Assembly: GCA_964512925.1 (NCBI GenBank)
Contig: CAZEKH010000001.1
Span: forward strand, 200,226-264,225
DNA: 64,000 nucleotides
Origin: an uncultured Candidatus Saccharibacteria bacterium
GTDB lineage: Bacteria > Patescibacteriota > Doudnabacteria > UBA920
Reading direction: 5' to 3'
A program made the translations under genes and the position numbers. Positions 6,025-60,967 of this stretch are shown piece by piece. Under the pieces are notes generated by a model that saw only the letters and a list, made by a program, of their open reading frames with translations, did not search any database and was not told the origin of the DNA. Within the stretch, counting starts at the first letter, position 1; each line of letters starts with the position of its first letter.

Positions 6025-6104
6025 TTTTTACCACTAATCATGAATTGTCCAAATATCACTGATTAATTTTGTAATAGTTCGGGTTATTGGTGTATTTCGA
6101 AAAT

Positions 6105-16831: not shown

Positions 16832-16943
16832 AATAATCGATGATTGCAGATTAAATGATTTAACATTTGTTATGTATTATAATTACATTATAAGCTTTGA
16901 AAAGTTTTGCGCAAAAAATCAATCTAAAATCAAATAAATTTTT

Positions 16944-18176: not shown

Positions 18177-18261
18177 GAGAGTCTTTGATTTAAAGATTTA
18201 ATGATTGAAAATAAAATGATTGTTAACAGGAAATAATAAAAAAATAACTTATATTACAAAA

Positions 18262-18292
18262 ACCTCGGAATATTCCGAGGTTTTTGTTTTTT
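18262..18292 (+). terminator. rho-independent terminator (ACCTCGGAATATTCCGAGGT + T-run)
   Basis: perfect palindrome plus TTTTTGTTTTTT. Confidence 0.65.
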
Positions 18293-18440: not shown

Positions 18441-20795
18441 TTATTGAGCTTTCTTTTTACCATAAACCTTGCGAGGTTTTGGAGGGTTTTCCTTCCAGTG
18501 TTTTAGGGCTTCTTGGAGTTCTGCTTCACTTTCAGGTTTTTTGGACATTATAAAGTTGCAATCCGGAAAACGATTGCAGGCATAAAAGAGTTTACCGCGG
18601 CCGCGGGATTTTCTTTCTACCACATCGCCAGTTTGGCAATTGGGACATTTAAACCCGGTTTTGTTCCAAATTTTGCTGATGCCTTTGCATTTGGGGTAGT
18701 CAACACAGCCCAAGAAAAATCCAAACCGCCCTTTTTTGACTTTCATTTCTTTGCCGCAGATGGGGCAGACTTCGCCCTTGGTTTTTTCTTCCAAAGCTTT
18801 GATCTGGGCTTCTTCTTCCGGCATTGGCTTGGTGGTTTTGCACTCAGTATCTGGGCAGGCCATAAATTTACCGGTCCGGCCGAATTTGATGATCATCATT
18901 TTGCCGCATTTCGGACAGGGGATGGTGGTTACCTCAATCTGTTTTTCCACACTCGCTTCTTTTTCTTTCAGATGTTTTTTGAAAGGTCCGTAAAATTCGT
19001 GCATTACCTCGGTCCATTTCATTTTGCCTTCCGCTATCTGGTCAAATTCTTCTTCTATATGCGAAGTAAAGTTTATATCTACGATCTCAGGAAAATTTTC
19101 AACCAGCATATCGGTTACCAAAAACCCTTCTTCAGTGGGCTTGAATTTTTTTTCTTCCTTGGTTACATAACCGCGGACCTCTATGGTGGACAGTGTAGGA
19201 GCATAGGTTGAGGGTCTGCCAATGCCGTGGGCTTCCAGCGCTTTAACCAGGCTGGCGTCCGTATACCTGGCAGGGGCTTCAGTAAAATGCTGGAGCGGCA
19301 AAAGCTCGTGAAGTTTGAGTTTTTCTTGTTCTGACAGCTCAGGCAGCATACCTTCTATCTCATCTTCCGGTTTTTCATCCGACCCTTCGGTATAGGCGCG
19401 GATAAATCCGTCAAACTTTATGACTTGTCCGTTGGCGCGAAAGACATAATTATTGATCTGCTGATTTTCTGCTTGCCCTTCATAGCCTTGGCGAAGGAGG
19501 GATCTACTGGCAGGCTTGGCTTCTATATCCACCGCAGTTTGTTCCATCAACGCAGCCTGCATCTGACAAGCGATGGTTCGTTTCCAGATTAAGTCATAGA
19601 GCCGAAACTGCTGTCTGTCTAAATATTGTTTTAAATTTTCAGGTTTTCTTAAGACATCGGTTGGACGTATGGCTTCGTGCGCTTCCTGCGCGCCTTTAGA
19701 CTTGTTGGTAAAATGTCTGGGTTCAGACAGACCGTATTCTTTGCCGAATTCGGCAGAGATGACTTGGCCTATGGCAGTTAAAGCTGATTGAGCCAGGTTC
19801 AAACTGTCGGTACGCATATAGGTGATAAGTCCCTGGTGGCCTTCATCGCCAATATCAATTCCTTCATAGAGCTGTTGAGCTACCATCATTGTCTGTTTGG
19901 CTGACATACCGAGTTTGCGCGCCGCTTCTTGTTGGAGCGTGGAAGTGGTAAAAGGGGCGGATGGATTTCTTTTAACTTCTTTTTTGGTAATTTCAGAAAT
20001 TTGATAATTTGCGCCTTCAAGATCAGCGACAATTTTTTTGCCTTCAGTCTCAGACTTGATATCCATTTTGCCCACAGTTTTGTCGCCGATTTTGTGGAGT
20101 TTGGCTATGAAGGTTTTATAACTCCCCCCATCCCCCTCTTTAGTTAAAGAGGGGGTGCCGGAGGCGGGGGAGTTTTTGGATAGCTTTGCTTCTATGCTCC
20201 AATACTCTTCCGCAACGAATTTTTGGATTTCCCTTTCCCGTTCAACAACAAGCCTGACAGCCACTGACTGGACGCGTCCGGCTGAAAGACCATACCGGAT
20301 TTTTCGCCAAAGAAAAGGGGAGAGTTCATAACCTACAAGCCTGTCTAAAACCCGCCGAGCCTGTTGGGCGTCAACCAAGTTGATATCTATAGAGCGGGGG
20401 TTTTCTAAGGCGTGTTGGATGGCGGTTTTGGTAATCTCGTGGAAAACGATGCGTTGAATGTTTTTGACGGATGAGGTTTTGCCTTTAGTTTTATTGAGAT
20501 CCAGCGCTTCTATCAAATGCCAGGAGATACTTTCTCCTTCGCGGTCTTCGTCAGTGGCAAGGATGATTTCCTGGCTGTCCTTGGCCAGTTTTTTTAGTTT
20601 GGCAACAGTTTCTTTGGCTTTAGCTGGGATGGAGTAGGTGGGTTCAAAGTCGTGTTCAGTGTCCACGCCCATTTTGCTTTTTGGCAAGTCGCGTACGTGA
20701 CCAAAGCTGGCTTCTACTGTGTAGCCACTGCCTAAAAAACGCGAGATGGTTCTCGCTTTGGTCGGGGACTCGACGATGATAAGAGGCTTGGACAT
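18441..20795 (-). CDS. topA: DNA topoisomerase I
   Basis: TOPRIM N-terminus, Topo IA core, C-terminal zinc-ribbon repeats; in-frame palindromic-element insertion encoding …NSPASGTPSLTKEGDGGS…. Confidence 0.9.
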   Translation of the reverse strand: MSKPLIIVESPTKARTISRFLGSGYTVEASFGHVRDLPKSKMGVDTEHDFEPTYSIPAKAKETVAKLKKLAKDSQEIILATDEDREGESISWHLIEALDLNKTKGKTSSVKNIQRIVFHEITKTAIQHALENPRSIDINLVDAQQARRVLDRLVGYELSPFLWRKIRYGLSAGRVQSVAVRLVVEREREIQKFVAEEYWSIEAKLSKNSPASGTPSLTKEGDGGSYKTFIAKLHKIGDKTVGKMDIKSETEGKKIVADLEGANYQISEITKKEVKRNPSAPFTTSTLQQEAARKLGMSAKQTMMVAQQLYEGIDIGDEGHQGLITYMRTDSLNLAQSALTAIGQVISAEFGKEYGLSEPRHFTNKSKGAQEAHEAIRPTDVLRKPENLKQYLDRQQFRLYDLIWKRTIACQMQAALMEQTAVDIEAKPASRSLLRQGYEGQAENQQINNYVFRANGQVIKFDGFIRAYTEGSDEKPEDEIEGMLPELSEQEKLKLHELLPLQHFTEAPARYTDASLVKALEAHGIGRPSTYAPTLSTIEVRGYVTKEEKKFKPTEEGFLVTDMLVENFPEIVDINFTSHIEEEFDQIAEGKMKWTEVMHEFYGPFKKHLKEKEASVEKQIEVTTIPCPKCGKMMIIKFGRTGKFMACPDTECKTTKPMPEEEAQIKALEEKTKGEVCPICGKEMKVKKGRFGFFLGCVDYPKCKGISKIWNKTGFKCPNCQTGDVVERKSRGRGKLFYACNRFPDCNFIMSKKPESEAELQEALKHWKENPPKPRKVYGKKKAQ
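20123..20172. repeat. Family-A-like element
   Basis: in frame inside topA. Confidence 0.65.
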
Positions 20796-21106: not shown

Positions 21107-22413
21107 AAAGTACTTTCTTTTTCCCCGATTTTTTCTAGGATTTTTTTTGACTCTTCGGGCGTGGCTGGACGGGGCGTGGAAAAGTTTTCTATGATTACCG
21201 GAATTAGTTCTATTGAGTCAAGTTTAGCAGGAGTTTTTGTTCCCTGAAGCTCATTTTGTCCGCCAGCTGGCGGATTGATTTTTGCCTGCCCGCCTTGTGC
21301 GTTCGGGCGGGATATTTGAATTTTTAAAGCTAGTCCTTCTTTGGTTTCCTGACTCCACTCTTGGTCAAAGATGAAGTTGCCGAGAGAGTAGAAGATATAT
21401 TTGGGGTTTGGGCATTGTGTTTTATCAACCTCTCCCCCCGCCATCCCTTCTTGAGGGGAGGGAGTTTCTTGAATCCCCCTCGCCTCTTGAGGAGAGGGGT
21501 TAGGGGAGAGGTTGTCTTTCGCGCAATACCTCTCTATAGTCTGCACCCAGTGAGGGTGAGCGCCGATGACTATGTCTGCCCCGTAGTCTATGGCGCTGTG
21601 GGCAAAGTCAATTTGGGACTGGTTGGGCGTGCGGGTGTATTCTGTTCCGGCGTGCATTGTAGCCACGACAAAATCGCAAAGCGATTTTGAATACTCAATA
21701 TTCAACTTTAAATTTTCAATATCTTCTATCCTGGCTACGAAATCATTCATTATTTTACCCCCGTCATTTACAGAGGAGTAGGAAGCCCCGACAAAACAAA
21801 TTTTTATCCCGTTTTTTTCTAACATAGCAGGCTGCCAGGCCTCTTTTATATTACTTCCTGTTCCCATATGCTTGATACCCGCATCATTCAATTTTTGTAT
21901 AGTTAGGTCCAGCCCGGTTTTTAGTTGGTCTAACGCATGGTTATTGGCCAAGTTCAAAACCTCAAAATTATATTTTTTTAATATATCAACAGAAGAAGTG
22001 GCAGCGCCGAAGACCAGGGAGCTGCCGCCGATTACAGCTTTTTTTGCCAAAGGACTTTCCAGGTTGCCGAAAGCAAAATCTGCGGATTTGAGCTGTTCAG
22101 CCATTTTTAAAAAAGGCAGTTCTGGATCGCCGAATTCTTTGGCTTTAAGGGCAACCTTGCGGGAGAGGATGATATCGCCGACCGCAAGGAAACTTGCGGA
22201 TGTTGTTTTGGGTTCTGTTTTTTCGCCTCTGAGCTCCTGCCCTTTTTTATAAAAAGCCAAAAGGTCGTTTTGCAAATCGCCTGTTTGGGCAGTGGTCGGC
22301 AGGCCTGTAAAGTCATTTTCATTGCTGCGTAAAAGTCCCAAGAGAGCCGCTAGCGCTAAAATACTCGCCACTATAATAGAAATAATTTTTGTTTTTGACA
22401 TAGTTGTAATCAA
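21100..22413 (-). CDS. CapA/PgsA-family metallophosphoesterase-like protein
   Basis: N-terminal TM; CapA motifs (MHAGTEYTRTP…IVIGAHPHWVQ); two adjacent in-frame palindromic-element insertions (…SPNPSPQEARGIQETPSPQEGMAGGE…). Confidence 0.65.
   Translation of the reverse strand: MITTMSKTKIISIIVASILALAALLGLLRSNENDFTGLPTTAQTGDLQNDLLAFYKKGQELRGEKTEPKTTSASFLAVGDIILSRKVALKAKEFGDPELPFLKMAEQLKSADFAFGNLESPLAKKAVIGGSSLVFGAATSSVDILKKYNFEVLNLANNHALDQLKTGLDLTIQKLNDAGIKHMGTGSNIKEAWQPAMLEKNGIKICFVGASYSSVNDGGKIMNDFVARIEDIENLKLNIEYSKSLCDFVVATMHAGTEYTRTPNQSQIDFAHSAIDYGADIVIGAHPHWVQTIERYCAKDNLSPNPSPQEARGIQETPSPQEGMAGGEVDKTQCPNPKYIFYSLGNFIFDQEWSQETKEGLALKIQISRPNAQGGQAKINPPAGGQNELQGTKTPAKLDSIELIPVIIENFSTPRPATPEESKKILEKIGEKESTLK
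21429..21464. repeat. Family-A element
   Basis: in frame inside capA-like CDS. Confidence 0.65.
21475..21513. repeat. Family-A element
   Basis: adjacent second copy inside capA-like CDS. Confidence 0.65.
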
Positions 22414-23836: not shown

Positions 23837-24400
23837 TAAATTTAAAAATTTTTTTATTTCCAGTTCAATTTTTGGAAAGACTTCTTTCTGCAGCTGTTCC
23901 AGCTCAGTTTGTAAGAAATTTTGTAATACAAAGGCTTCTGTGGGCAAGATGGTTTTCTCCAGCCTGGATTCAACCCCAATCCTGAGGCGCTGAAAATCCT
24001 GAGTGCCTAAGTGTTCGATTATGCTTTTTATGCCGTTGTGTCCGGCTGCGGAAGAGGAGTGGGTATGGCGGATTTTTCCAAGAGGTAAATCTATTTCATC
24101 CTGTAACACTAACAGATCTTTTGTATAATTAAGTTTATAGAAATCGCAAATTTCTTTAACTGCTTTTCCCGACTCATTCATATAAGTTTGGGGTTTAACA
24201 ACTATTACCCCTCCTCTTAAGGTAAGAGGAGGTAGGGGGGAGTTATGAATCTCCAAAATTTCAGAATGGAATTTTTTTTCCCAATTTGCATTCTGCAATT
24301 TAAATTCTGCAATCAAAAAATCCAAAGCCAGCCACCCGACGTTGTGCCTAGTGTTTTTATATTTTTCTCCCGGATTGCCCAATGCAACAATGATTTTCAT
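23834..24400 (-). CDS. pth: peptidyl-tRNA hydrolase
   Basis: MKIIVALGNPG…TRHNVGW…HNGIKS motifs; in-frame palindromic-element insertion (…SPLPPLTLRGG…). Confidence 0.85.
   Translation of the reverse strand: MKIIVALGNPGEKYKNTRHNVGWLALDFLIAEFKLQNANWEKKFHSEILEIHNSPLPPLTLRGGVIVVKPQTYMNESGKAVKEICDFYKLNYTKDLLVLQDEIDLPLGKIRHTHSSSAAGHNGIKSIIEHLGTQDFQRLRIGVESRLEKTILPTEAFVLQNFLQTELEQLQKEVFPKIELEIKKFLNL
24208..24242. repeat. Family-A-like element (CCCCTCCTCTTAAGGTAAGAGGAGGTAGGGGGGAG)
   Basis: in frame inside pth. Confidence 0.65.
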
Positions 24401-31268: not shown

Positions 31269-32519
31269 ATGGCAAAAGAACAATACATCGTAGGTCTGGA
31301 CATTGGCACGCAAAATATGCGCGCGGTTCAAGCTAAGATAGACCGGGAAACCGGTAAATTTTCAGTTGTCGGATTAAGCGAAACTCCGTCTTTGGGTATG
31401 CGCAAAGGCCAGCTGGTAGACATAGAAGAAGCGGTATCGTGCATTTCTCAGGTTTTAGAGAAATTGGAAAGGATGACCGGCGTGCCTGTTTCTTCGGCCT
31501 ATGTATCCATCGGCGGCAGTCATATTTTGTCTATGAACTCACACGGCGTGATCGCCGTTTCTCGTCCGGACGGCGAGATCGCGGAAGCGGACATTGTCCG
31601 TTGCGTGGACGCCAGCCAAGCCATAGCTTTGCCGCAAAACCGGGAAGTTTTGCACGTGTTTCCGAAAAATTTTGTTCTGGACGGACAGACCGGGATAAAA
31701 GACCCTTTGGGTATGTCCGGCATCAGGCTTGAGGTGGATACCATTATAGTCCACGCGGGTCTGCCTTTTGTGCGCAATTTAAACAAAGCTGTTTTGCAGG
31801 CTGGGCTTGAAAGCGAAGAGTTGGTGTTAGCTCCGCTGGCCGCTTCAGAAGCAGTGTTGTCTAAAAAACAAAAAGAGCTGGGCGTATGTGTTTTGGATTT
31901 GGGCGCTGGTACAACCGGCCTGACTGTGTTTGAAGAAGGGGATTTGCTACATACCGCTGTTTTGCCTTTGGGCTGCCAACATATAACCAATGACATTGCT
32001 ATTGGGCTTAGAACTTCTGTGGAAACCGCGGAAAAAGTTAAACTTTTATACGGCCACGCAGACCCCAAGGCCGCGGAAAAAGGCGAAGAGATAGATCTGT
32101 CCAAGATTGACGCGCACGAAGTGGAAAGCGCGGACCGGCAATATGTTTTAGAGATCATTGAAGCGCGCCTGGAAGAAATTTTTCATTTGGTGTCCGGGGA
32201 ACTAAAAAAAATCTCCCGCGACGGCAAGTTGCCGGCTGGGGTGGTTTTGTGCGGCGGGGGAGCGGAGCTGCCCGGGATACTGGATTACGCGAAAAAAACA
32301 CTTCGCCTGCCTGCGGTTTTAGGCTCTGCCCAAAACATAGAAACCGTGATAGATCGCGCTTATGATCCGGCGCTTGCCACCGCAGTCGGACTTTTACTCT
32401 GGCAAAAACAGTATGGCAGCGGCGGAAGCTTCGGCTCGTCCTTCGGCTCTGTCACCAAAGCCTTCTCCGGCCCGGGAGTGGAAAAAGTAAAAAATTGGTT
32501 TAAAGCATTATTACCGTAA
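31269..32519 (+). CDS. ftsA: cell division protein FtsA
   Basis: actin-like ATPase (VGLDIGTQNMR…), C-terminal amphipathic tail. Confidence 0.9.
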   Translation: MAKEQYIVGLDIGTQNMRAVQAKIDRETGKFSVVGLSETPSLGMRKGQLVDIEEAVSCISQVLEKLERMTGVPVSSAYVSIGGSHILSMNSHGVIAVSRPDGEIAEADIVRCVDASQAIALPQNREVLHVFPKNFVLDGQTGIKDPLGMSGIRLEVDTIIVHAGLPFVRNLNKAVLQAGLESEELVLAPLAASEAVLSKKQKELGVCVLDLGAGTTGLTVFEEGDLLHTAVLPLGCQHITNDIAIGLRTSVETAEKVKLLYGHADPKAAEKGEEIDLSKIDAHEVESADRQYVLEIIEARLEEIFHLVSGELKKISRDGKLPAGVVLCGGGAELPGILDYAKKTLRLPAVLGSAQNIETVIDRAYDPALATAVGLLLWQKQYGSGGSFGSSFGSVTKAFSGPGVEKVKNWFKALLP

Positions 32520-32526
32520 AAAATAT

Positions 32527-33435
32527 ATGGGAAAATTTTCATCAGCAATGGGTCATGCGGGCGAAGGCGTAAGCCGTGAAAAATATACAAGTCAAGAAAT
32601 AAGGCCAGATCAATTAGAAAAAATAAAAAATATCCCAACAGAGAAAGTTGCGATTGAAAGAGAGCCGCACGAGTCTTTTGAATTTGATTCAGATTTGATA
32701 ATTTATGATGCCCCTAACAAAAATCAGGATTTTTATGTTGAACAGCCGGAATTTGGTATGTATGGTGTTTTTGACGGACGTTTTGACGAGGGTAAAAATT
32801 ATTCAAAAAGTTTAGCTAAAATTGCTGGTAGGTTGGCAAAAAATATTAAGCCTGATATGGTTTTGGTTTTGTGGGAAAAAGCTGTAGAAAATTTTTTTAT
32901 AGAATTTGAAAAAGAAGCCAGTATAAGTGTTCCCATAAAAAAAGTAGGCATTTTCAAGAAAAAAATTCAACCGTTGGGAGATTCTACATCAACAATTCTA
33001 TTTTTTCACTCATCCGGTGAAGTGAGGGGTAAAAATCGCGGGGATTCGCCAGTTTATTTTTATGATATTAAAACTGGGTTATTAAAACAACAAACAGTTC
33101 CAACTTCTAAAATCGGAAAAGACGAAAAAGGTAGTACAATTTCTTATCCAGGGGGCTATTCCGGTGAAAATCAACAGCCATCCAATAATATCAAAACGAG
33201 GATTGGTTCCAATTCTTTAGTTTTACTTTCAACAGATGGCTGGATACAAACTAGCTATCAGAAAGGTTTGCGTCCAGAAGTTGATATACCTAAAGCTTTT
33301 AAAGCTTTAGGTGAAAATTTAACGCCAAAAAATGCCACTGAGGCGATACAAAAACTTTTAGAAAATCCAGAAGATGATGTAACTTTGTTTGCTATATTGC
33401 CCAGAAAAAAACAAAGTTCAGCCGCAGCAGGCTAG
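32527..33435 (+). CDS. PP2C/PPM-like Ser/Thr phosphatase domain protein (degenerate catalytic motifs)
   Basis: YGVFDGRFDEG (cf. FGVFDGHGG), …GDSPVYF…, LLSTDGW (cf. ASDGLWD), DDVTLFAIL; starts 7 nt after the ftsA stop. Confidence 0.45.
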   Translation: MGKFSSAMGHAGEGVSREKYTSQEIRPDQLEKIKNIPTEKVAIEREPHESFEFDSDLIIYDAPNKNQDFYVEQPEFGMYGVFDGRFDEGKNYSKSLAKIAGRLAKNIKPDMVLVLWEKAVENFFIEFEKEASISVPIKKVGIFKKKIQPLGDSTSTILFFHSSGEVRGKNRGDSPVYFYDIKTGLLKQQTVPTSKIGKDEKGSTISYPGGYSGENQQPSNNIKTRIGSNSLVLLSTDGWIQTSYQKGLRPEVDIPKAFKALGENLTPKNATEAIQKLLENPEDDVTLFAILPRKKQSSAAAG

Positions 33436-33461
33436 TATATTTATATTTAAAATCACATAAC

Positions 33462-33509
33462 AAAGACGCTTTTTGGCCTTCAAGAGGGCTTGACAAAAGC
33501 GTCTTTTTT
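33462..33509 (+). terminator. rho-independent terminator (AAAGACGCTTTTT…AAAAGCGTCTTT + T-run) overlapping a TTGACA-17-TATATT promoter (33490..33518)
   Basis: 12-bp inverted repeat plus T-run; -35/-10 hexamers embedded. Confidence 0.55.
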
Positions 33510-33650
33510 ATGTATATTATACAGTTACTTGATGGTATGATACTTGAATCAATTTCTCAGGTTTGTGTCATTCTGGAAACTCCTTAAGTTATAGGATTTA
33601 TACGGAATTTTAACTACTTGACTTGTTAATTTGAGAATTTGTAGATTATT

Positions 33651-33700
33651 TTGTCATCCCGGCCGATCCGCCAGCAGGCGGAGAGAGCCGGGATCCAGGG
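33651..33700. repeat. Family-B element TTGTCATCCCGG…CCGCCAGCAGGCGG…CCGGGATCC
   Basis: intergenic, upstream of the high-GC block. Confidence 0.6.
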
Positions 33701-33770
33701 TTCTAAAGCACCTGCAAAATTAAATCCACACAAACATTTTAGCCTGGTTTTTTCAGATATTCATCTTAGT

Positions 33771-33806
33771 CTCCCTCTCCAATACTTGGAGAGGGACGGG
33801 GAGAGG
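33771..33806. repeat. Family-A element
   Basis: intergenic, upstream of high-GC gene 33917. Confidence 0.7.
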
Positions 33807-33916
33807 TTAAGAATATCTCCAAACATCAGGCTGAAATCCAGCTTGAACCCCGCGTAAGCGAGGGAAGAAGTTGTGTTTCGGTCTAGCTCTTTCGATTTTT
33901 TGCCTGAGGAGGCACT

Positions 33917-35002
33917 ATGAAATTGCGTTTTTCTTGCGCCCTCGCGGCGCTTTTGCTGTTCGTTTTTGCTTCGGCTGCCCACGCGGCTGAAGATGTTGAA
34001 ATTTCGTTGGTTGGACAGCCGGGGGTGATGGACGCCCTTCAGGCGTCCGACCTAGAGCTCAACGAGCAGATTGGCGGGATTGAAAACCCTGCCAATCTTA
34101 TCAGCCAGCTTCATCTGGCTGATGGTTCTCGGGTTACGCCCGAGAATGCTCACACGCTTTCGGTCAAGTCAGTTTTTTTGAGCAGAAATGCTCAGGAAGA
34201 CGGCCCTGGCGCCGCTCGGTTCCTTGCCGAGTGCAACCGCCTCGCTACCACCCGGCAGCAGGCTATTGCCTCCGCCCGCCGTTCAGCCAACCGCATCGAT
34301 GCGGTTCAGTCCGAAGCGGACGACCGCCAGCTGCTCACGCAGATGGCGGAAATGCAGTCCGAAATCAACGCGCTCAACGAGCGCGTTGAAACTCTCGTCG
34401 AAGAAAAAACCGCCGCCGTTCAGCGTGCGGAAACCGCGGAGCAAAAACTAGCCGCCCTCCAAGCGGCTGGAACCCCGAAACCTTCATCGGCCGCCCCTCC
34501 GGCGACCGACACCCAGAAACAGTTCGAACCAGCTGGCACGAGCCAGAAGAAAGGTGTTTTGGCGGTTCGCCAGGTTGTGCCTCCGTGCCGACCCGGTGTC
34601 AACACTCGGCCGTGCAGTATGGCTGAGGTTGAAAAAACCATTTTAGAGCAGGAACTGGGGGGCATTATACCCCAAATCACAACGCTCTTAATAGTTTTGT
34701 TGATATTTTTCTCGGCCGCGATTGTTGCGGGTACGAGTGGTGCGTTCCAAGCGTGGGCTGATGTCTACGCCACGGTTAAAAAAGCTGGGAAACCCCAGCA
34801 ACCCATCGCGGCCTCAAATATCTATGCTGTTTTACAGCAGCAAGCCAATTTGGGAAATCCACCCAACCTAGAATCTTTAAAAAACCGGCGTCCCACATGG
34901 GAACGTAGAGAAAAAGATAGAAGGGATGGTGGCGACCGCAGGTCGCCAGAATCGGGTCAAGTCATTGAAATTTCGACCGACGCGAGTCGGGCAACAGGCT
35001 GA
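33917..35002 (+). CDS. secreted coiled-coil protein with C-terminal TM helix and Arg-rich tail (high-GC gene)
   Basis: signal peptide MKLRFSCALAALLLFVFASAAHA; Ala/Glu/Gln-rich coiled coil; GC and GC3 clearly above the genome background. Confidence 0.5.
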   Translation: MKLRFSCALAALLLFVFASAAHAAEDVEISLVGQPGVMDALQASDLELNEQIGGIENPANLISQLHLADGSRVTPENAHTLSVKSVFLSRNAQEDGPGAARFLAECNRLATTRQQAIASARRSANRIDAVQSEADDRQLLTQMAEMQSEINALNERVETLVEEKTAAVQRAETAEQKLAALQAAGTPKPSSAAPPATDTQKQFEPAGTSQKKGVLAVRQVVPPCRPGVNTRPCSMAEVEKTILEQELGGIIPQITTLLIVLLIFFSAAIVAGTSGAFQAWADVYATVKKAGKPQQPIAASNIYAVLQQQANLGNPPNLESLKNRRPTWERREKDRRDGGDRRSPESGQVIEISTDASRATG

Positions 35003-35249
35003 AAACGCAAAAAAAGTGAAAAAGGTCTCACCGCGGTTGCGGTGAGGTAAAGATCTCCATCGGCGCTATACGCGCCGCAAGTCAGGTAAACCCTGATGAT
35101 GAGATCCCTAAAATTCACAAAACACCAGCCGCTCCGATGTCCATCGGAGCGGCTTTTACATTGCAATATTTTATATGTTTTTACCTGACAATCTTATATA
35201 AATAAAATCTAAAAATTATTAACAACCCAAACCTCCAAAACCTCAAAAA

Positions 35250-35280
35250 AAACTGAAAAAACTGAAAAAACTGAAAAAAA
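35250..35280. repeat. tandem (AACTGAAAA)x3
   Basis: immediately 5' of the Family-E palindrome. Confidence 0.6.
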
Positions 35281-35336
35281 TTTTGCTGTCAACTATGACA
35301 CATATGTGTTACGATTGACAGCAAAATTTTTTTCAG
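35270..35336. repeat. Family-E AT-rich long palindrome (…AAATTTTGCTGTCAACTATGACACATATGTGTTACGATTGACAGCAAAATTT…)
   Basis: 35 nt upstream of the PaaX-like gene; inverted copy at 36031..36078 and a third copy at 61966..62016. Confidence 0.7.
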
Positions 35337-35365
35337 GTATTTTGGATTAAATAACAAAAATATAT

Positions 35366-36025
35366 ATGGGTTACCATAAAAATTCATTTGTTTCTGAGAT
35401 TAACAATGCTACCGCTACTAACAAACCTGTTTTTGAGTTAAGCGATCAGCAAGTGGAGCAGTTTAAAACCGCATCAGCCTATGTTTTAGGAGTGGTGGGG
35501 GTTTTGGGTGTGGTGGCAGTAGCCGCAGTAGCTCCCAATTTGGTTGGCGCTATTTACAAAATTCATAAAACTTTCAAAAAGAAAAAGCCGCTTTTTCAAC
35601 AAAGGCAAAAGGCCGTGGCTGAAACATTCTTTTATCTGAAAAGGCATGGGTTTATAGATATTTCCAAAACTGAGAAGGGCTTTTTTGCAAACATAACTGA
35701 AAAAGGGAAAAAGCGTTTACTAAAATTGACTATGGACAATGTTTTTGTGCCGAAGCGCCAAAAATGGGATGGTAAATGGTGGCTGGTTGCAGCTGACGTG
35801 CCAACAAAGAAATATAGGGCCGGAGCGGATTCTTTGCGCAGAAAGATTAAACAAATGGGTTTATTTCCGCTTCAGAGGACAATGTGGTTTTATCCTTTTG
35901 ACCCTTCAGCACAAATAGAGTACATTGCCAATCATTTTGGCATTGGGAATTTTGTGACTGTGATGGAGGTTTCGCGTCTCGATAAAGAAGATGAAAAAAA
36001 ACTAAAGGATTTCTTTAAAATTTAA
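35366..36025 (+). CDS. membrane-anchored PaaX-like (PaaX_C-type) putative transcriptional regulator
   Basis: TM segment; C-terminal WDGKWWLVAADVP…LRRKIKQMGLFPLQRTMWFYPF resembles the PaaX C-terminal domain; gene bracketed by inverted palindromic repeats. Confidence 0.4.
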   Translation: MGYHKNSFVSEINNATATNKPVFELSDQQVEQFKTASAYVLGVVGVLGVVAVAAVAPNLVGAIYKIHKTFKKKKPLFQQRQKAVAETFFYLKRHGFIDISKTEKGFFANITEKGKKRLLKLTMDNVFVPKRQKWDGKWWLVAADVPTKKYRAGADSLRRKIKQMGLFPLQRTMWFYPFDPSAQIEYIANHFGIGNFVTVMEVSRLDKEDEKKLKDFFKI

Positions 36026-36030
36026 TACTT

Positions 36031-36078
36031 GAATTGCTGTCAATCATAACACATATGTGTCATAGTTGACAGCAATTC
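36031..36078. repeat. Family-E palindrome, inverted relative to the 35281 copy
   Basis: begins 6 nt after the PaaX-like gene stop. Confidence 0.7.
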
Positions 36079-36373
36079 AGTGTTGTTTAGTAGCATTGGC
36101 AGAATTAGCATTGGCAGTGTTGTGGAGTTTTTAGGTGTATTTTGATTTTTGAAGTTATAAATTCATTCAAATGGCAACAATTTTGCTATCTAGTTCAGCT
36201 ATAAAAAAACCTCATAAATAAAGCAGAAAAACTGGTTAATTTGGTTTTAACAAACTCTTGACAAGTGGGGGTTTTTTTGTTATAATGTTAAGTCATTATT
36301 ATCAGTGGCTTTTGGGATGGTGTTTTTAAAACATTTATCCCTAAAATCCGGTAGTAATGAAGCACATTTACAA

Positions 36374-36512
36374 ACGCGGATTTTCGCAGACTGTAGCAAT
36401 ACAGCGCGGATTTTACGCGGAAATAGCGTTACTTATATATACGCGGACTTTGTAGACTGAACGCGGACTGACGCGGATCTTGGAAACAAGGCGCGGATTT
36501 CATGCGGATTCG
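36374..36512. repeat. array of ~8 degenerate direct repeats of (A/G)CGCGGA(T/C)TT
   Basis: ACGCGGATTTT, GCGCGGATTTTA, CGCGGAAAT, ACGCGGACTTT, ACGCGGACTGA, CGCGGATCTT, GCGCGGATTTCA, TGCGGATTCGG within 140 bp. Confidence 0.6.
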
Positions 36513-36589
36513 GTACACAAGAAAAATCTTCATAAACATTGTTCGTGTCCTTTGCGGTAAATGTCTTATTGCTTTTAACAGAGGTTCGA

Positions 36590-36644
36590 CCTCTCCCGCC
36601 CCGATGTCCATCGGGGCACCCTCCCCAGGCCTGGGGAGGGTAAG
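36590..36644. repeat. Family-A variant with inner CCCCGATGTCCATCGGGG hairpin
   Basis: intergenic; CCGATGTCCATCGG core recurs at 35131..35150. Confidence 0.6.
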
Positions 36645-36793
36645 AAGAATAGGACTATTGCTGCAAAGGACACAAATCCTTTGGTGAATTTGAGTTTGGT
36701 TTTTTTAAGTTTTTCTGCCCGTCACTTCTGCCGCTTGGCAAAAAGGACGAGGCATAACAAGAAATTGATCGAAATCTGTCTTAGGAGACTACA

Positions 36794-37426
36794 ATGTTTG
36801 GAAAAAAGAGTTCGTTCATTCTTGCCGCGGCTTTCGCGGCTTCCACGATGATCGCGCCCGTTATGGCGCAAAACCAGTTTTTGCCCACGACGGTAAACCC
36901 ACCGGCAACGGTGACCCCGGCCGCAGGTGGGCAGGTGATTTTCCTGCCTCTTGCACCACAGGCGCAACCCGCGCCACCGCCCGCAGCTTCGATTGCGACC
37001 TGTCCGGCTCCGCCGGCGGGTATGCAGATCACTTGCACCCCGGTGCAAGGCACTCAACAAGCTTGCTGCAATACGCAAACTTCTACGGCTTCGGTTGTGT
37101 GGTGGTCCACAATGTGGACGCCGTTAATCATTTTGACCTTACTAGGCATCTTGGGCTATTGGCTAACCCACCGCCGCGCAGCCGCTCCGGTCAACCAGAT
37201 GGTAGGCCAAGCAAACGTGGTCTGGCAGCCGCCTACTGTCACGGTTTCGGCCGTGCCATTTGTGGTTGGCGGACCTCAACCAGTTTTTCCAGGAGCTCCG
37301 GCTCCTGTCCGCCCGGTTGGCGCGCCTCGTCCGGCTCCTGCGGCAGGTAACTGTCGGCATTGCGGACAACCGCATCCTGCAGCAAGCATTTTCTGCCCCA
37401 CCTGTGGTGGGCAACTCATGCCGTAG
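36794..37426 (+). CDS. secreted/membrane proline-rich protein with C-terminal CxxC…CxxC zinc ribbon (high-GC gene)
   Basis: signal peptide, Pro/Ala-rich regions, central TM helix, C-terminal CRHCG…CPTCGG; preferred over overlapping minus-strand ORFs because of the signal peptide and SD. Confidence 0.45.
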   Translation: MFGKKSSFILAAAFAASTMIAPVMAQNQFLPTTVNPPATVTPAAGGQVIFLPLAPQAQPAPPPAASIATCPAPPAGMQITCTPVQGTQQACCNTQTSTASVVWWSTMWTPLIILTLLGILGYWLTHRRAAAPVNQMVGQANVVWQPPTVTVSAVPFVVGGPQPVFPGAPAPVRPVGAPRPAPAAGNCRHCGQPHPAASIFCPTCGGQLMP

Positions 37427-37452
37427 GCGGTAGTTTGAAAAAGGAAAAAATC

Positions 37453-38016
37453 ATGAAAGTTATATTCGTTCTCCTTTTTTCTCTGGGCGTCATGAACGCC
37501 CAGAGCGTGATAACTGCCGTGCCTTGCACGGTCGGCGGGCAAACCGGTTGGTGCGCAATTTTGCCGCCGGTACAATCCCTGGCCGCACAGCCCGCGCCAC
37601 CGCCTGCTCCGAGACCGCAGCCAACCAGAGTATTCGATCCAAAAGATCGGGCACTTCTGGAGAAAATCGTCGCCCTTGCCGAACGGCAAGGATCGGTTGT
37701 CACGGTTCAGCCCCACCAGGCCGCACAGACCGTCGCTACTCCATCCGTCTCCCAGCCACAACAACCGGTCGTTCAGTCGATCGTGTCCCAGAAGACAATG
37801 GACACTATCGACCGTCGGCTGACTGCCTTGGAAACAGGGCAGAATACCCATGCCGAGAGGATTAACCAGATCGGCGACCGAGTGGTCGCCGTAGAGGGTC
37901 GTGCCAACGAGGCTCTGTCCGCCGCCCAAGCGACGGCGAATGCAGAGCAGCAGCTCCGCAACGCCGTACGCCAGTACGGCACAAAGGACCTGAAAAAGGT
38001 TCTGAACAAGAAGTAA
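37453..38016 (+). CDS. secreted proline-rich coiled-coil protein (high-GC gene)
   Basis: ATG 37453 preceded by AAAGGAAAAAA; signal peptide MKVIFVLLFSLGVMNA; APPPAPRPQP then coiled coil. Confidence 0.45.
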   Translation: MKVIFVLLFSLGVMNAQSVITAVPCTVGGQTGWCAILPPVQSLAAQPAPPPAPRPQPTRVFDPKDRALLEKIVALAERQGSVVTVQPHQAAQTVATPSVSQPQQPVVQSIVSQKTMDTIDRRLTALETGQNTHAERINQIGDRVVAVEGRANEALSAAQATANAEQQLRNAVRQYGTKDLKKVLNKK

Positions 38017-38103
38017 CGCTATTTATCTAACACTTCAATCTTGATTTTTTCCCTTGCTTACATCAGTTAAGCGAGGCAATCAGAAGTGTTAGGTACGAAA
38101 AAC

Positions 38104-38141
38104 GAGGGGGAGAGCAGATGCAATGTCTGTCTCTCCCCCTC
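38104..38141. repeat. Family-A variant GAGGGGGAGAG-N16-CTCTCCCCCTC (11-bp arms)
   Basis: first element of the 38.1-39.05 kb repeat hotspot. Confidence 0.65.
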
Positions 38142-38163
38142 AATTCCTTTATTTCAAGTACAA

Positions 38164-38197
38164 CCTCTCTGTCCCGATCTGATCGGGACATCTCTCC
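38164..38197. repeat. Family-D hairpin CTCTCTGTCCCGAT-CTG-ATCGGGACATCTCTCC
   Basis: copies also at 38839..38870 and, inverted, 51201..51232. Confidence 0.6.
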
Positions 38198-38266
38198 TCC
38201 GCCAGCTGGCGGATTGGGGAGAAAAATATTGAATACTGCTTTGGGATTTATGATTTAGAGTTGCAA

Positions 38267-38303
38267 CCTCTCCCCAACCCTCCCCTCAGTAGGGGAGGGA
38301 GTA
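38267..38303. repeat. Family-A element
   Basis: repeat hotspot. Confidence 0.65.
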
Positions 38304-38696
38304 AGGATGTTGAACTCTGAAATGTGGGTCTTGATATTAGAAAGGAATAGGGATACCAACTTTGTCTGCTACTAGTTTCGCCCATTCTTCCAGCCTTTGA
38401 ATTTTTTTGTGGTTGACTGTTAGTTCTTCGTGAATGGTTTTGGTAAGATGGGATAAATTTGTAAGAGCGGTAGAATGAACATTTAAAGTTTCTTTAATTT
38501 CTTTAAATTGAGCATCTACTTCGGCAAATTTTTCATCCAAATATGTAAAAATTGATTGTAAATTTATATCCATAAAGTTACTGAATGAATTGTTGTAAAA
38601 GTATTATAACAATTAACAAAATGAGTGGCAAATTATGTGGATTTAATGAGGGTTTGGGTGAGAGTATGGAAATTGGTGCATTAACCAAGTCTGTAA

Positions 38697-38732
38697 CCTC
38701 ACCCCAGCCCTCTCCGAACCGGAGAGGGAGGG
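38697..38732. repeat. Family-A element CCTCACCCCAGCCCTCTCC-GAACC-GGAGAGGGAGGG
   Basis: repeat hotspot; near-identical to 44892 copy. Confidence 0.7.
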
Positions 38733-38740
38733 AAATGCAA

Positions 38741-38765
38741 GATTCCCGTATGCACGGGAATGACA
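38741..38765. repeat. Family-B subtype GATTCCCGT-ATGC-ACGGGAATGACA
   Basis: near-identical to 60943 copy. Confidence 0.6.
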
Positions 38766-38838
38766 GAGACAAGTAAGGAATGACAAATAAAGTTAGGAGG
38801 ATGTTCTTTAAAAATTTAGCGTTTGTTTTTTGGTAGCA

Positions 38839-38870
38839 CCCTCTCTGTCCCGATCTGATCGGGACATCTC
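38839..38870. repeat. Family-D hairpin
   Basis: identical core to the 38164 copy. Confidence 0.6.
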
Positions 38871-38888
38871 CCCCCAAAGGGGGAGAGA
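38867..38888. repeat. Family-A short form TCTCCCCCC-AAA-GGGGGAGAGA
   Basis: repeat hotspot. Confidence 0.55.
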
Positions 38889-38930
38889 AAAAGGAAGGTC
38901 TATCCGGACGCGTAGGAAAGATTTGTATTT

Positions 38931-38967
38931 TTCCCCCTCTCTTAAGATAAGAGAGGGTTGGGGTGAG
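38931..38967. repeat. Family-A element
   Basis: repeat hotspot. Confidence 0.6.
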
Positions 38968-38983
38968 TTATGAAACTTCATAA

Positions 38984-39020
38984 CCCCCTCCATCTCCCCC
39001 TTACCTTAAGGGGGAGGGTG
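38984..39020. repeat. Family-A-like element
   Basis: repeat hotspot. Confidence 0.55.
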
Positions 39021-39093
39021 ATATAGTTTTTCCCGCGCGTCCGGAAATCCCGAAGGGGAAATTCCGTCCGGATCGCAGAAACGGAGGTGCGAA

Positions 39094-51165: not shown

Positions 51166-51183
51166 AGCGAAGCACTATATTTT

Positions 51184-51204
51184 TCTCCCCAAGACTTGGG
51201 GAGA
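51184..51204. repeat. Family-A short form TCTCCCC-AAGACTT-GGGGAGA
   Basis: directly after nrdJ stop, fused to a family-D element. Confidence 0.55.
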
Positions 51205-51232
51205 TGTCCCGATGAATATCGGGACAGAGAGG
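51201..51232. repeat. Family-D hairpin (GAGATGTCCCGAT-GAAT-ATCGGGACAGAGAGG)
   Basis: directly after nrdJ. Confidence 0.6.
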
Positions 51233-51300
51233 TTGAGTAAAAATTGAAAATTTAAAAATCAAAAATTAAAATTACAGTTTAAAATTTAAAATTAAGAAAT

Positions 51301-51719: not shown

Positions 51720-52406
51720 ATGTCAATAAAAAAGAAACCCACAAATAAACGGATCAAAATGCCGGAGAAGTTTTCTGACGAGCCGAAGGGGTTGGTGATT
51801 TGTTATTTGGGGGCGGGGAAGGGGAAGACTACGGCGGCGATGGGGATGGCTGTTAGGGCGGCTGGAGCCGGGATGAATGTTTATATACTGCAGTTTGTAA
51901 AAGCAAAGGGAGCGGACGAGGAGGGGAAAAAAGTCGGCGAGTGGCCGGTGTCGAGCGAAATTGAGTTTTTTAATGCTTTGGAACAATATCACCCCCTAGC
52001 CCCCTCTTATGCTAAGAGGGGGAATGAAGGGGAGGGAAGAATTGGAAATATCTATAATGAGCAAGTTGGTTTAGGGTTTGTGGGGATATTGGGCGACCAG
52101 AAAGAAAAGGCAGTTCATATCAAAGCGGCGCTGGATGGGTTAAACAAAGCCAGGGAAATTATTTCCAGCGGACGATACCAAGTCGTTATTTTAGACGAGA
52201 TTATTTCCGCTTTGGAATCCAAACTTTTGGAAGAAAGGGATATTTTGGATTTAATCTCCGTCAAAAGTCCACTTCAGCATCTGGTTTTGACGGGACATAA
52301 TAAATTCCCTAAAATACTGGAGCGTTGTGATTTGGTTACGGAAATGGTGATGGTGAAGCACCCATACTATAAAGGGATACTTGCGCAAAGAGGAATAGAT
52401 TATTAG
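51720..52406 (+). CDS. cobO: ATP:cob(I)alamin adenosyltransferase, CobO/BtuR family
   Basis: P-loop GAGKGKTTAA…, …VVILDE…, …LVLTGHN…; in-frame palindromic-element insertion; start uncertain (TTG 51702, ATG 51720 or 51759). Confidence 0.7.
   Translation: MSIKKKPTNKRIKMPEKFSDEPKGLVICYLGAGKGKTTAAMGMAVRAAGAGMNVYILQFVKAKGADEEGKKVGEWPVSSEIEFFNALEQYHPLAPSYAKRGNEGEGRIGNIYNEQVGLGFVGILGDQKEKAVHIKAALDGLNKAREIISSGRYQVVILDEIISALESKLLEERDILDLISVKSPLQHLVLTGHNKFPKILERCDLVTEMVMVKHPYYKGILAQRGIDY
51991..52036. repeat. Family-A-like element
   Basis: in frame inside cobO. Confidence 0.6.
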
Positions 52407-53094: not shown

Positions 53095-53694
53095 ATGGTT
53101 TACTTAATAATACTTTTAGCAGTTTTGTCCAGGTTTGTGCCGCATATGCCAAACTTTGCGCCCATAACCGCTTTGGCTATTTTTACCGCAGCTTATATGC
53201 CGTGGAAAAAAGCCGCGGGACTGACTTTGGTTGTTCGTTTGATCAGCGACATTTTTTTGGGATTTTTCTCCTGGCCGATGATGCTGGCTGTTTATGCTTC
53301 GCATCTGGCAGGAATTGTGTTTGGAGTATGGATAAAGAACTCCTCCCGGCCTCCTCTTTGCCAAAGAGGAGGAGTTAAAGAGAAGTTATATTCCCCCTCT
53401 TTACCAAAGAGGGGGTTAGGGGGAGTTAATTTTTCTAAGGTTTTTGTGTCCTCGTTAGGTTCCTCAATAATCTTTTTTTTAGTCACAAACTTTGCTTTTT
53501 TGTATTCTAACTACCCGCATACGTTAGCGGGCATACTTCAAGCTTATATAAACGGCCTGCCTTTTTTGCGCGGTACGATGTTTGGCGATTTAGTTTATTC
53601 CTTTGCTTTTTTTGGAGCGTATGCTTTGGCTTCAATGAAGTTCAAATTTGCAAATAGGACAAATCTACAAATGATTACAAATGATAAATATTAG
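53095..53694 (+). CDS. small polytopic membrane protein, possibly an ECF-type S component (speculative)
   Basis: 5-6 TM helices; two in-frame palindromic-element insertions in a loop; adjacent to the DUF4430 gene. Confidence 0.3.
   Translation: MVYLIILLAVLSRFVPHMPNFAPITALAIFTAAYMPWKKAAGLTLVVRLISDIFLGFFSWPMMLAVYASHLAGIVFGVWIKNSSRPPLCQRGGVKEKLYSPSLPKRGLGGVNFSKVFVSSLGSSIIFFLVTNFAFLYSNYPHTLAGILQAYINGLPFLRGTMFGDLVYSFAFFGAYALASMKFKFANRTNLQMITNDKY
53350..53373. repeat. Family-A-like short palindrome CCTCCTCTTTGCCAAAGAGGAGG
   Basis: in frame inside the 53095 membrane-protein CDS. Confidence 0.55.
53393..53425. repeat. Family-A-like element
   Basis: second in-frame copy inside the 53095 CDS. Confidence 0.55.
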
Positions 53695-59017: not shown

Positions 59018-60022
59018 ATGCCAGAACTCCCGGAAGTTGAAACAGTTGTCAGAGAACTCAACAAAAAACTAAAAAATCTAACATTGAGTAAGGTGGTTGT
59101 TAACTATGGAAAAATGGTGCATTTGGGTGAGCAAATAGTGAGTAACAAAAGGCAGGATGACAATGGTAGGGTTAAGCAGTTTAAAAATTTATTGGTCGGC
59201 GCCAAAGTGTTAAGTGTGACAAGAAGGGCTAAGCTGTTAATTTTTAGATTGGAGAGCGCCCCCACCCCCCAGCCAACAGCTAGACAGTTAGGCGGGCAGG
59301 CATCCCTCCTCCGCAGTGCGGGAGAGGGGATGCTATATTTATTAGTCCACTTAAAAATGACCGGACAGTTCATCTTTGAAGATGAAAAGCTGAAGAAGAA
59401 GACAGGCAGCCATTACCGCCTATTAAACAAAAAAACAGCACCTTTGGTACAGCTTCCTGGAAAACATACCCACATATTTTTTTATTTTACTGACGGTTCG
59501 GTTTTGTATTTTAACGACGTACGCAAGTTTGGGTATATGAAACTGTTGGTTGGTGGTGAAGCGGTAAAAGTTTTAGCATTTCCCGAGTACGGTCCGGAGC
59601 CTTTGGACAAGAAATTTAAATTACGACAATTTTTAACAGCTGTTAAAAATTGTCAAAAAAGAAAAATCAGCATCAAGATGTTGTTAATGGAGCCTTCCTT
59701 TGTGGCGGGCATCGGCAACATTTACAGCGACGAAATATTATTCCACGCTGGAGTTAAGCCGGACAGGAAAGTTGGAACATTGAAAAAACTAGAAATAGAA
59801 GAAATATATAGAAACATTAAACCAGTTTTGCTAACTGGCATAAAAGCCAAAGGTTCCAGTGTGGGGGATTTTGTGCGCACAGATGGCAGTTGGGGGAAAA
59901 TGGGCAAATATCACTATGTTTACGGCCGGCGCGGGCAAAAATGCAAAAAATGCGGTACAATGATACAAAGCCTAAAGCTGGGTGGCAGGACAGCGAGTTT
60001 TTGTCCCAAATGCCAGGGGTAG
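59018..60022 (+). CDS. mutM: formamidopyrimidine-DNA glycosylase
   Basis: MPELPEVETV N-terminus, H2TH, C-terminal zinc finger CKKCG…CPKCQ; in-frame GC-rich insertion (…SAPTPQPTARQLGGQASLLRSAGEGM…). Confidence 0.85.
   Translation: MPELPEVETVVRELNKKLKNLTLSKVVVNYGKMVHLGEQIVSNKRQDDNGRVKQFKNLLVGAKVLSVTRRAKLLIFRLESAPTPQPTARQLGGQASLLRSAGEGMLYLLVHLKMTGQFIFEDEKLKKKTGSHYRLLNKKTAPLVQLPGKHTHIFFYFTDGSVLYFNDVRKFGYMKLLVGGEAVKVLAFPEYGPEPLDKKFKLRQFLTAVKNCQKRKISIKMLLMEPSFVAGIGNIYSDEILFHAGVKPDRKVGTLKKLEIEEIYRNIKPVLLTGIKAKGSSVGDFVRTDGSWGKMGKYHYVYGRRGQKCKKCGTMIQSLKLGGRTASFCPKCQG
59266..59332. repeat. Family-A-like GC-rich insertion
   Basis: in frame inside mutM. Confidence 0.5.
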
Positions 60023-60884: not shown

Positions 60885-60967
60885 TTGTCATTCCGGCCCA
60901 AGAGCCGGAATCTAGTTAATTTGATTGTATTTTTTTAAACAAGATTCCCGTTTTCACGGGAATGACA
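60885..60967. repeat. pair of Family-B subtypes (TTGTCATTCCGGCC-N6-GCCGGAATCTAG and GATTCCCGT-TTTC-ACGGGAATGACA)
   Basis: intergenic between 60512 and 61023 genes. Confidence 0.6.

Follow-up and report, generated by a model that had tools for sequence, protein, structure and literature searches.

The DNA considered here lies at positions 38017-39093 of a window of 64,000 nucleotides, the whole stretch that was analyzed, and separates two plus-strand genes (37360..38016 and 39094..39852) that are both ~60% GC, against a window mean of ~42%. We found that this DNA is divided by a small minus-strand gene, which we call p78, into two spacers, one of 320 bp between convergent 3' ends and one of 520 bp between divergent 5' ends. 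Both spacers are rich in short palindromic repeats, which cover 417 of the 840 spacer bases (~50%) and which we refer to as families A, B, and D. We consider it likely that these are non-autonomous palindromic repeats accumulating, around an intact p78, in DNA that tolerates them. The repeats and the gene are as follows:

38104-38141, no strand assigned: hairpin with family A arms, GAGGGGGAGAG-16 nt-CTCTCCCCCTC, 11/11 complementary, purine arm first
38161..38222, plus strand: family D copy 1, CAACCTCTC, then hairpin TGTCCCGAT-ctg-ATCGGGACA, then hairpin TCTCTCC...GGGGAGA
38198-38213: palindrome TCCGCCAGCTGGCGGA, inside the loop of the second hairpin of family D copy 1
38264-38303, minus strand: family A unit, CCCTCCCCT-actg-AGGGGAGGG-ttg-GGGAGAGGT (triplex scan, fold)
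38337..38573, minus strand: p78, gene for a 78-amino acid protein, 29% GC, the AT-rich center of the stretch (translation, homologues)
38648-38662, plus strand: family A remnant, GAGGGTTTGGGTGAG, comprising a purine-arm end and the third strand, in the opposite orientation to the next family A unit
38692-38730, minus strand: family A unit, CCCTCTCC-ggttc-GGAGAGGG-ctg-GGGTGAGG, 0 mismatches (blastn self-match, triplex scan)
38738-38765, plus strand: family B hairpin, CAAGATTCCCGTATGCACGGGAATGACA; second copy at 60940-60967, 93% identical
38837..38888, plus strand: family D copy 2, CACCCTCTC, then TGTCCCGAT-ctg-ATCGGGACA, then TCTCCCCC-caaa-GGGGGAGA
38903..39045, no strand assigned: 143-nt imperfect palindrome, outer stem TCCGGACGCGTAGGAAA / TTTCCCGCGCGTCCGGA, with two inverted family A motifs inside
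38930-38970 and 38977-39025: the family A units of that palindrome, with motifs at 38935-38969 (plus) and 38982-39017 (minus)

A family A unit consists, in this order, of a pyrimidine arm, a short loop, a purine arm, a second short loop, and a G/T-rich third block, which has the potential to pair with the purine arm in antiparallel orientation (G.G, A.A, or T.A). Judged by its sequence, family A is a G/C-rich class-II intrastrand-triplex motif, a type of repeat known successively as BoxC, PIT, and TM (Holder et al. 2015, PMC4666352, citing Hoyne and Maher 2000). The published TM consensus is CCCTCTCCC-N3-4-GGGAGAGGG-N2-3-GGGTGAGGG (PMC4666352). The copy at 8815-8846 on the minus strand reads CCCTCTCCCagtGGGAGAGGGtaGGGTGAGGG, and all three of its 9-nt blocks are identical to those of E. 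coli TM_ECO no. 17. The copy at 38697-38728 on the minus strand reads CCCTCTCCggttcGGAGAGGGctgGGGTGAGG and fits the G/C-rich consensus in Table 1 of PMC4666352.

The motifs were located with our own implementation of the published ITxF search rules (PMC4666352), under which a Watson-Crick pyrimidine/purine hairpin with a stem of 6-15 nt, at most one mismatch, and short loops must be accompanied by a third block. The units found have stems of 8-11 nt, no more than one mismatch, and loops of 1-8 and 1-6 nt. They occupy 19 loci in the window (21 over both strands), and four units lie in 38017-39093. Such numbers are not random: of G-rich class-II motifs whose stems reach 8 nt or more, the window holds 21, whereas 100 dinucleotide shuffles averaged 0.03 with a maximum of 1, and 38017-39093 holds 4, against 0 in 300 shuffles. 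The density at the locus is ~7 times that of the window's other intergenic DNA (Poisson p ~0.003, post hoc). Among 23 hairpins of the pyrimidine/purine type, every pure pyrimidine/purine one except that at 36618 carries a third block, which is either adjacent or, in family D, past a second hairpin. The stems differ among family A copies, and the third block shifts in step with them (e.g., AAAGAGGGGG with GGGGGAGTTA). A comparison of own and cross third strands was not counted as evidence because it is circular, the elements having been chosen for matching.

Within the first spacer, the family A unit at 38264-38303 tops a hairpin of ~90 nt (38242-38334) located immediately 3' of the stop codon of p78, and it matches positions 16926-16962 of a related locus (L078) at 92%. 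The hairpin at 38104-38141 has no third block and is followed by a T-rich stretch. Folded as RNA, 38017-38336 gave z = -9.0. In the second spacer, the remnant at 38648-38662 is inverted relative to the unit at 38692-38730, and the two are therefore a decayed inverted doublet. Four inverted doublets of family A were found in the window (8815-8859, 21426-21513, 53337-53428, and 38930-39025); tandem inverted TM motifs have also been observed in E. coli (PMC4666352).

The doublet at 38930-39025 accounts for the 143-nt palindrome. The outermost part of this palindrome is an inverted pair, TCCGGACGCG, at 38903-38912 and 39036-39045, that extends to 17 nt at 88% (15/17). Its arms (~70 nt each) are identical at 51 of 73 positions along their full length. 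The pair and the doublet (about 38926-39025) are concentric within 1.5 nt, their centers being at 38974.0 and 38975.5, and a DNA fold of 38895-39055 (161 nt) gave -39.9 kcal/mol (z = -7.5). This concentric, full-length homology of the arms indicates one long palindrome composed of two diverged family A units, and not terminal inverted repeats (TIRs) around a cargo. The apparent TIR is the outermost stem of an inverted family A doublet, not the end of a MITE (miniature inverted-repeat transposable element).

Family D has the general form CAACCTCTC, hairpin TGTCCCGAT..ATCGGGACA, hairpin TCTCYCC..GGRGAGA. The two copies beside p78 share an identical core of 31 nt (38164-38194 and 38840-38870), and a third copy is located at 51201-51235. 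Parallel pairing (C.G, T.A) is possible between the purine arm and the leading CCTCTCT of family D, so family D looks like a triplex motif in which a hairpin forms one loop, that is, like the family A design with an extra hairpin. Because the palindrome TCCGCCAGCTGGCGGA lies within the loop of family D copy 1, the elements are nested. That palindrome has a second copy at 21259 and a one-mismatch copy at 33667, and a family A unit in a related locus (L048) holds a similar nested hairpin. Both family B and the TCCGCC..GGCGGA palindrome take the form of simple hairpins resembling repetitive extragenic palindromic (REP) elements. Family B is also present in the equivalent spacer of L048 (1367-1392), and in an exact search of the related loci for families D and B this was the only match.

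Beyond the related loci, the family D core was observed in 47 metagenome contigs (L082-L128) of 28-64% GC with unrelated neighboring genes. In these contigs it takes the form ACCYCTCTGTCCCGAT-N3-5-ATCGGGACATCTCYCC..GGRGAGA, with conserved flanks that lay outside the search pattern. In several copies the purine arm GGAGAGA is located 5-9 nt before an ATG, in the manner of a ribosome-binding site. Neither the family D core nor a relative of the downstream gene at 39094..39852 was found in IMG/VR, which gave no link to phages. An independent Logan assembly matches 38852-39110 base for base, and its contig breaks in the middle of family D copy 2, as assemblies do at repeats.

The gene p78 was recovered as a member of a protein family solely by an exhaustive phmmer search. 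Among 1.84 billion representatives, 49 homologues were found at E<=1e-3 (1e-14 to 1e-3), mostly of 76-84 amino acids and full-length. W64 is invariant in their alignment, Y11, E50, E62, and K71 are conserved at >=90%, and p78 shares the pattern of these ~79-amino acid proteins (..F.YLDE.F....E....R..R.E.WA....K.GIP.). AlphaFold2 predicted one long helix at residues 6-72 (predicted local distance difference test, pLDDT, 92.9). NCBI holds a protein identical to p78; an exact look-up gave no record of it as an encoded gene, and a word-index homology search returned p78 itself only. Homologues are also encoded in L048, L034, and L081. On this evidence of conservation, p78 is judged to be a real, intact gene of a small, conserved, unnamed family. 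A candidate promoter precedes it:

38603..38631, minus strand: promoter-like site of p78, near-consensus and of the extended -10 type, TTGCCA-17-TATAAT plus upstream TG, 11/12 consensus matches, ending 29 nt before the ATG

This site is a consensus match alone, and the number of such sites is not above that in shuffles. Two other ORFs (open reading frames), 38578..38877 (minus) and 38585..38776 (plus), were rejected as genes; they have no family matches, run through the repeats, and are considered spurious.

These results allow the preliminary description of this DNA, made from the letters alone, to be revised. It had described about 950 bp between high-GC genes as lacking a convincing ORF. 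The flanking genes are indeed high in GC; the DNA between them is not ORF-free, however, as p78 with its 49 homologues is present. A conserved coding gene there in relatives had been proposed as a sign of recent pseudogenization rather than repeat accumulation. The gene p78 is such a gene, but it is intact, which favors accumulation. Six family A elements had been counted; four hairpins with a third block were located, along with related arms (in 38104-38141 and in both family D units) and the remnant at 38648-38662. The two family D hairpins, the small palindrome, and the family B hairpin were all located, and so was the inverted pair, with its right arm shifted by one base to 39036-39045.

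The triplex motifs are not confined to spacers. Of the 19 loci, eight are within real genes in which Pfam domains flank the unit on either side, and the only ORF around a ninth is the spurious 38578..38877. Copies of family A form in-frame insertions in topA (20119-20156), pth (24203-24249), a PGA_cap gene (21426-21513), an S-adenosylmethionine (SAM) methyltransferase gene (8815-8859 and 8992-9023), a CobA/BtuR gene (51988-52022), and a DUF6580 gene (53337-53428). The insert in Pth encodes the peptide SPLPPLTLRGG, and the solved structures of Pth have a gap of 8 residues at that point. In the CobA and DUF6580 orthologues of relatives, the site is empty or is filled by a different insertion. 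By comparison, the TM_ECO copies of E. coli are "always located intergenically" (PMC4666352). The products of the window's dnaJ, grpE, and fpg genes (6087-7256, 1635-2246, and 59018-60022) match their Pfam profiles over 37-66 residues more than the profiles are long, an excess suggestive of additional insertions in housekeeping genes. We consider the in-frame copies in topA, pth, and other genes to be of more interest than the spacer itself.

Comparison with relatives was based on 80 related loci for nucleotide matching and on 48 for the spacing of ftsA and ftsZ. Nucleotide matches of the spacer to the 80 loci were limited to p78 and single repeat units. In L131, the gene order is a homologue of the upstream flanking gene p218 (37360..38016), an AT-rich spacer of 351 bp, a homologue of the downstream flanking gene p252 (39094..39852), DUF5663, a giant protein, and ftsZ; neither p78 nor a triplex motif was found in the 12.5 kb of that locus. 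In L048, the end of a high-GC gene is followed by a repeat-rich spacer, p78 (minus), a second repeat-rich spacer of 622 bp, and p252 (plus), and the 622-bp spacer has A-, B-, and D-like units in an order that differs from that in the window. The repeats are thus missing from the syntenic L131 and have been turned over in L048. A further repeat family (..TACGGATGNTACAGATANCTACAGATGGGGACAAAA..), absent from the window, was noted in L048 at 400-540, 1150-1200, and 2335-2390. Triplex motifs have a density of 0.30/kb in the window and 0.05-0.27/kb in 13 related loci, and none were found in the other 68. Their abundance is a lineage-specific expansion.

The flanks of the stretch comprise the following:

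37360..38016, plus strand: p218, upstream gene, ~60% GC, no family assigned, start codon uncertain (ORF list, GC profile)
38020..38100, plus strand: hairpin in two tiers immediately 3' of the stop codon of p218, outer stem 38024-38036 / 38083-38095 (inverted repeat, RNA fold)
39036..39093, plus strand: p252 leader, a GTCCGGA box at 39039-39045 and another at 39066-39072, followed by GGAGG and ATG; overlaps the right arm of the 143-nt palindrome
39094..39852, plus strand: p252, downstream gene, ~60% GC, product with signal peptide, Cys-containing conserved domain, poly-Pro, and transmembrane helix (translation)

The counterpart of p218 at the same position in L131 has 33% identity. The two-tier hairpin is single-copy within the window (blastn self-comparison), a similar one was seen by eye behind the p218 homologue of L131, and it probably forms the 3' end of p218 or its terminator. 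The p252 product is predicted to be a secreted or membrane-anchored protein. Its family numbers 16 proteins, one with the source label Candidatus Doudnabacteria, and homologues are present in L048, L034, L018, L005, L131, L132, and L129; in L129 the homologue adjoins a sortase gene. The layout of the p252 leader (GTCCGG, ~20 nt, TCCGGA, GGAG, ATG) is repeated upstream of the L048 homologue. TCCGGA was considered as a conserved operator and set aside as a weak lead, being full only in L048, partial in L034, and absent from L018 and L005. No matches to p218, p78, p252, or a 1420-amino acid protein encoded nearby were found in Pfam, PHROGs, or NCBIfam.

The locus has an unusual setting in that an island of 12.5 kb (32520-45056) separates ftsA (31269-32519) from ftsZ (45057-46262). 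The two genes are 5-435 bp apart in 44 of the 48 related loci and 5.4-8.4 kb apart in the other four, against 12,538 bp here, and the locus therefore sits in a variable island. The island contains orphan genes, a PaaX-like regulator, DUF5663, and the 1420-amino acid protein, and p252, DUF5663, and the giant protein form a core that is found again in L131 and, in part, in L132. The window as a whole is cellular Patescibacteria DNA, as it encodes DnaK, TopA, Der, HisRS, NrdJ, ComEC, FtsA, and FtsZ, and the closest relatives of its FtsZ (62-84% identity) are metagenome-assembled genomes labeled Candidatus Doudnabacteria. Genes of 56-62% GC alternate with genes of 30-40% GC, both in the window (33917-35002, 36794-38016, and 39094-39852) and in L048 (1525-2259 and 2659-3435) and L131 (4258-5502 and 5854-6522). 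Homologues in other Doudnabacteria-like genomes likewise exceed their hosts' GC content (36-44%), so this excess is a conserved property of these gene families. Elsewhere in the window, a MacB/FtsX-type permease is broken into two ORFs (15572-15985 and 16010-16831).

We envisage that short, non-autonomous palindromic repeats have piled up in both spacers and nested in one another, spreading as selfish DNA by way of single-stranded hairpin or triplex intermediates or with the help of a trans-acting enzyme, and surviving where insertion does no harm. Some units may additionally serve as 3'-end hairpins. The units may also raise local rates of rearrangement, as has been reported for TM loci in E. 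coli (PMC4666352). The suggestion in the preliminary description that this is a preferred landing site fits with dispersed, multi-copy, nested elements, with an L131 spacer that is free of them, and with the different set and order of units in L048. Self-alignment with blastn bore out the repeats as real, and the comparison with relatives showed L131 empty of them and L048 rearranged.

Several other explanations were weighed. The hairpins could act in RNA, as terminators, insulators, or mRNA-stabilizing 3' structures for p218 and p78, or as regulators in the 5' untranslated region of p252, and be kept by selection. This is consistent with the very strong RNA fold of the p218-p78 spacer, with the way in which 38264-38303 caps the hairpin past the p78 stop codon (a T-rich run comes next on the minus strand), with the terminator-like score of family B on the minus strand, and with the purine arm of metagenomic family D copies, which resembles a sequestered ribosome-binding site ahead of the ATG. 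We nevertheless think it unlikely. The same units occur in frame within coding sequences, their order differs between the window and L048, and L131 lacks them; family D is followed by unrelated genes or, often, by no gene at all; PIT/TM elements had neither promoter nor terminator activity in E. coli (PMC4666352); and terminator-like sites are no commoner than in shuffles. There is a smaller chance that p78 is a cassette, gained by recombination between two family D units that now stand as direct repeats 676 bp apart. The family D copies flanking it are identical at 31 of 31 positions, versus 91% identity to the third copy, D-like units flank the p78 homologue of L048 as well, and L131 lacks both p78 and the repeats. 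The p78 homologues of L034 and L081, however, have no units nearby, flanking by chance is expected in repeat-rich genomes, and no junction or empty site was recovered for such a cassette.

The preliminary description had also raised a structured RNA locus and a decayed mobile element. As to the former, family D units might be genes that encode a small structured RNA akin to the whalefall-1 RNA motif (RF01762; Weinberg et al. 2010, PMC2864571), with which they share an architecture of CUCUCC hairpin, second hairpin, and GAGG-type tail. In an 81-nt search, copy 2 (38838-38888, minus) scored 20.5 bits (E = 0.0012), and the family D core is strongly conserved over the 47 contigs of very different GC. 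However, this score and that of 51181-51234 on the plus strand (13.0 bits) are below the gathering score of 37, and copy 1 was not detected. An Rfam scan of 37900-39200 by E-value returned generic microRNA-type hairpins and sub-threshold whalefall-1 only, and at the gathering threshold the entire window yielded two tRNAs and nothing else. Family D units also occur in either orientation relative to neighboring genes, one copy has a foreign palindrome inside its loop, and the assembly graph breaks at a unit as it does at repeats; we consider this identity for the locus improbable. Least probable of all is that 38903-39045 is a MITE or what is left of a mobile element bounded by TIRs of 10-17 nt. 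A perfect 10-nt inverted pair that extends to 15/17 invites that interpretation, and when the region was shuffled by mononucleotide, a perfect 10-mer pair within 150 nt arose just 8% of the time. Yet the 10-mer occurs at just its two sites in the 64 kb, no target-site duplication is visible around 38903-39045, the arms show homology throughout their 70 nt and are concentric with the family A doublet, the right arm falls in the p252 leader, whose layout is common to L048, and no ORF remnant with a family match was found.

Our explanation of accumulating non-autonomous repeats has weaknesses of its own. No transposase, integrase, or RAYT-like gene was found among the window's ORFs of >=120 amino acids, nearly all of which were scanned. 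The conservation of the family D core over contigs of 28-64% GC exceeds what would be expected of a neutral selfish repeat, and covariation of its third strand is weak (1.13 versus 1.37 mismatches). The enrichment test at the locus is post hoc and partly circular, as the repeats themselves lengthen the spacers. Triplex formation by these units is a potential read from their sequence, and for the E. coli motif no triplex could be detected either in vivo or in double-stranded DNA (PMC4666352). These points all count against the explanation that we prefer.

A bolder hypothesis can be put forward only tentatively, and we doubt it more than we believe it. In this Doudnabacteria-like lineage, triplex motifs and their two-hairpin relatives would be actively proliferating in the manner of Rickettsia palindromic elements (RPEs), entering loops, spacers, and, in frame, essential genes (topA, pth). 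They would also drive the turnover of the ftsA-ftsZ island, including the capture of p78 between identical family D copies, and family D would be the genomic identity of orphan RNA motifs such as whalefall-1. The spacer finding itself means very little, as it amounts to a small gene that had been overlooked and repeats of a class already described (BoxC/TM), and the locus is ordinary in kind. The wider pattern is the high density of these motifs in a reduced Patescibacteria genome, with diverse stems and a third block that changes with them. In-frame copies, together with clean empty sites in orthologues, provide a natural data set on motif mobility, which also bears on the constraint on the third block and on the tolerance of insertions in essential proteins.

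The repeats differ from the conventional terminators that this genome also appears to use. Ordinary-looking bidirectional terminators were noted at 18256-18287 and 47280-47317, where perfect hairpins of 14-17 bp are flanked by A-runs and T-runs (ACAAAAACCTCGGA..TCCGAGGTTTTTGT and AAAAACCCAGGATCCGC..GCGGATCCTGGGTTTTT); these are distinct from the repeat families. RPEs are short palindromic repeats found in spacers and in frame in conserved proteins. The window's units are likewise located both in spacers and in frame in conserved genes, but their sequences are unrelated to RPEs, the host lineage is another, and they are 30-60 nt long, versus ~100-150 bp for RPEs.

With REPs and REPINs, the units share the form of 20-40-nt palindromes that gather in spacers, singly, in clusters, or as inverted doublets forming long hairpins. 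They differ in that no GTAG or CGTC tag was seen by eye at the unit ends (the units begin ..AACCTC.. or ..TTCATAACCCC..), the window ORFs that were scanned included no Y1 transposase, and the third block has no counterpart in REPs. Family D resembles whalefall-1 in its layout (a CUCUCC..GGAGAG hairpin, a second hairpin, and a G-rich tail), and both come from uncultivated organisms only; the sequence of the second hairpin differs, and scores of 20.5 and 13 bits are under the gathering score of 37.

The closest likeness is to BoxC/PIT/TM. Like those elements, family A has three consecutive blocks (CCCTCTCCC, loop, GGGAGAGGG, loop, GGGTGAGGG) with G/C-rich stems of 8-11 nt, is dispersed in many copies, often as tandem inverted pairs, has no transposase, and is linked to variable regions. 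The differences lie in the host, a member of the Patescibacteria, and in the abundance, ~0.3/kb here versus 23 per E. coli genome. About half of the window loci are in frame within genes, whereas TM_ECO is intergenic, a location that is not part of its structural definition. Some window variants carry a second hairpin nested in the loop, and the stems are far more varied than those of the known motif, with the third block changing in step.

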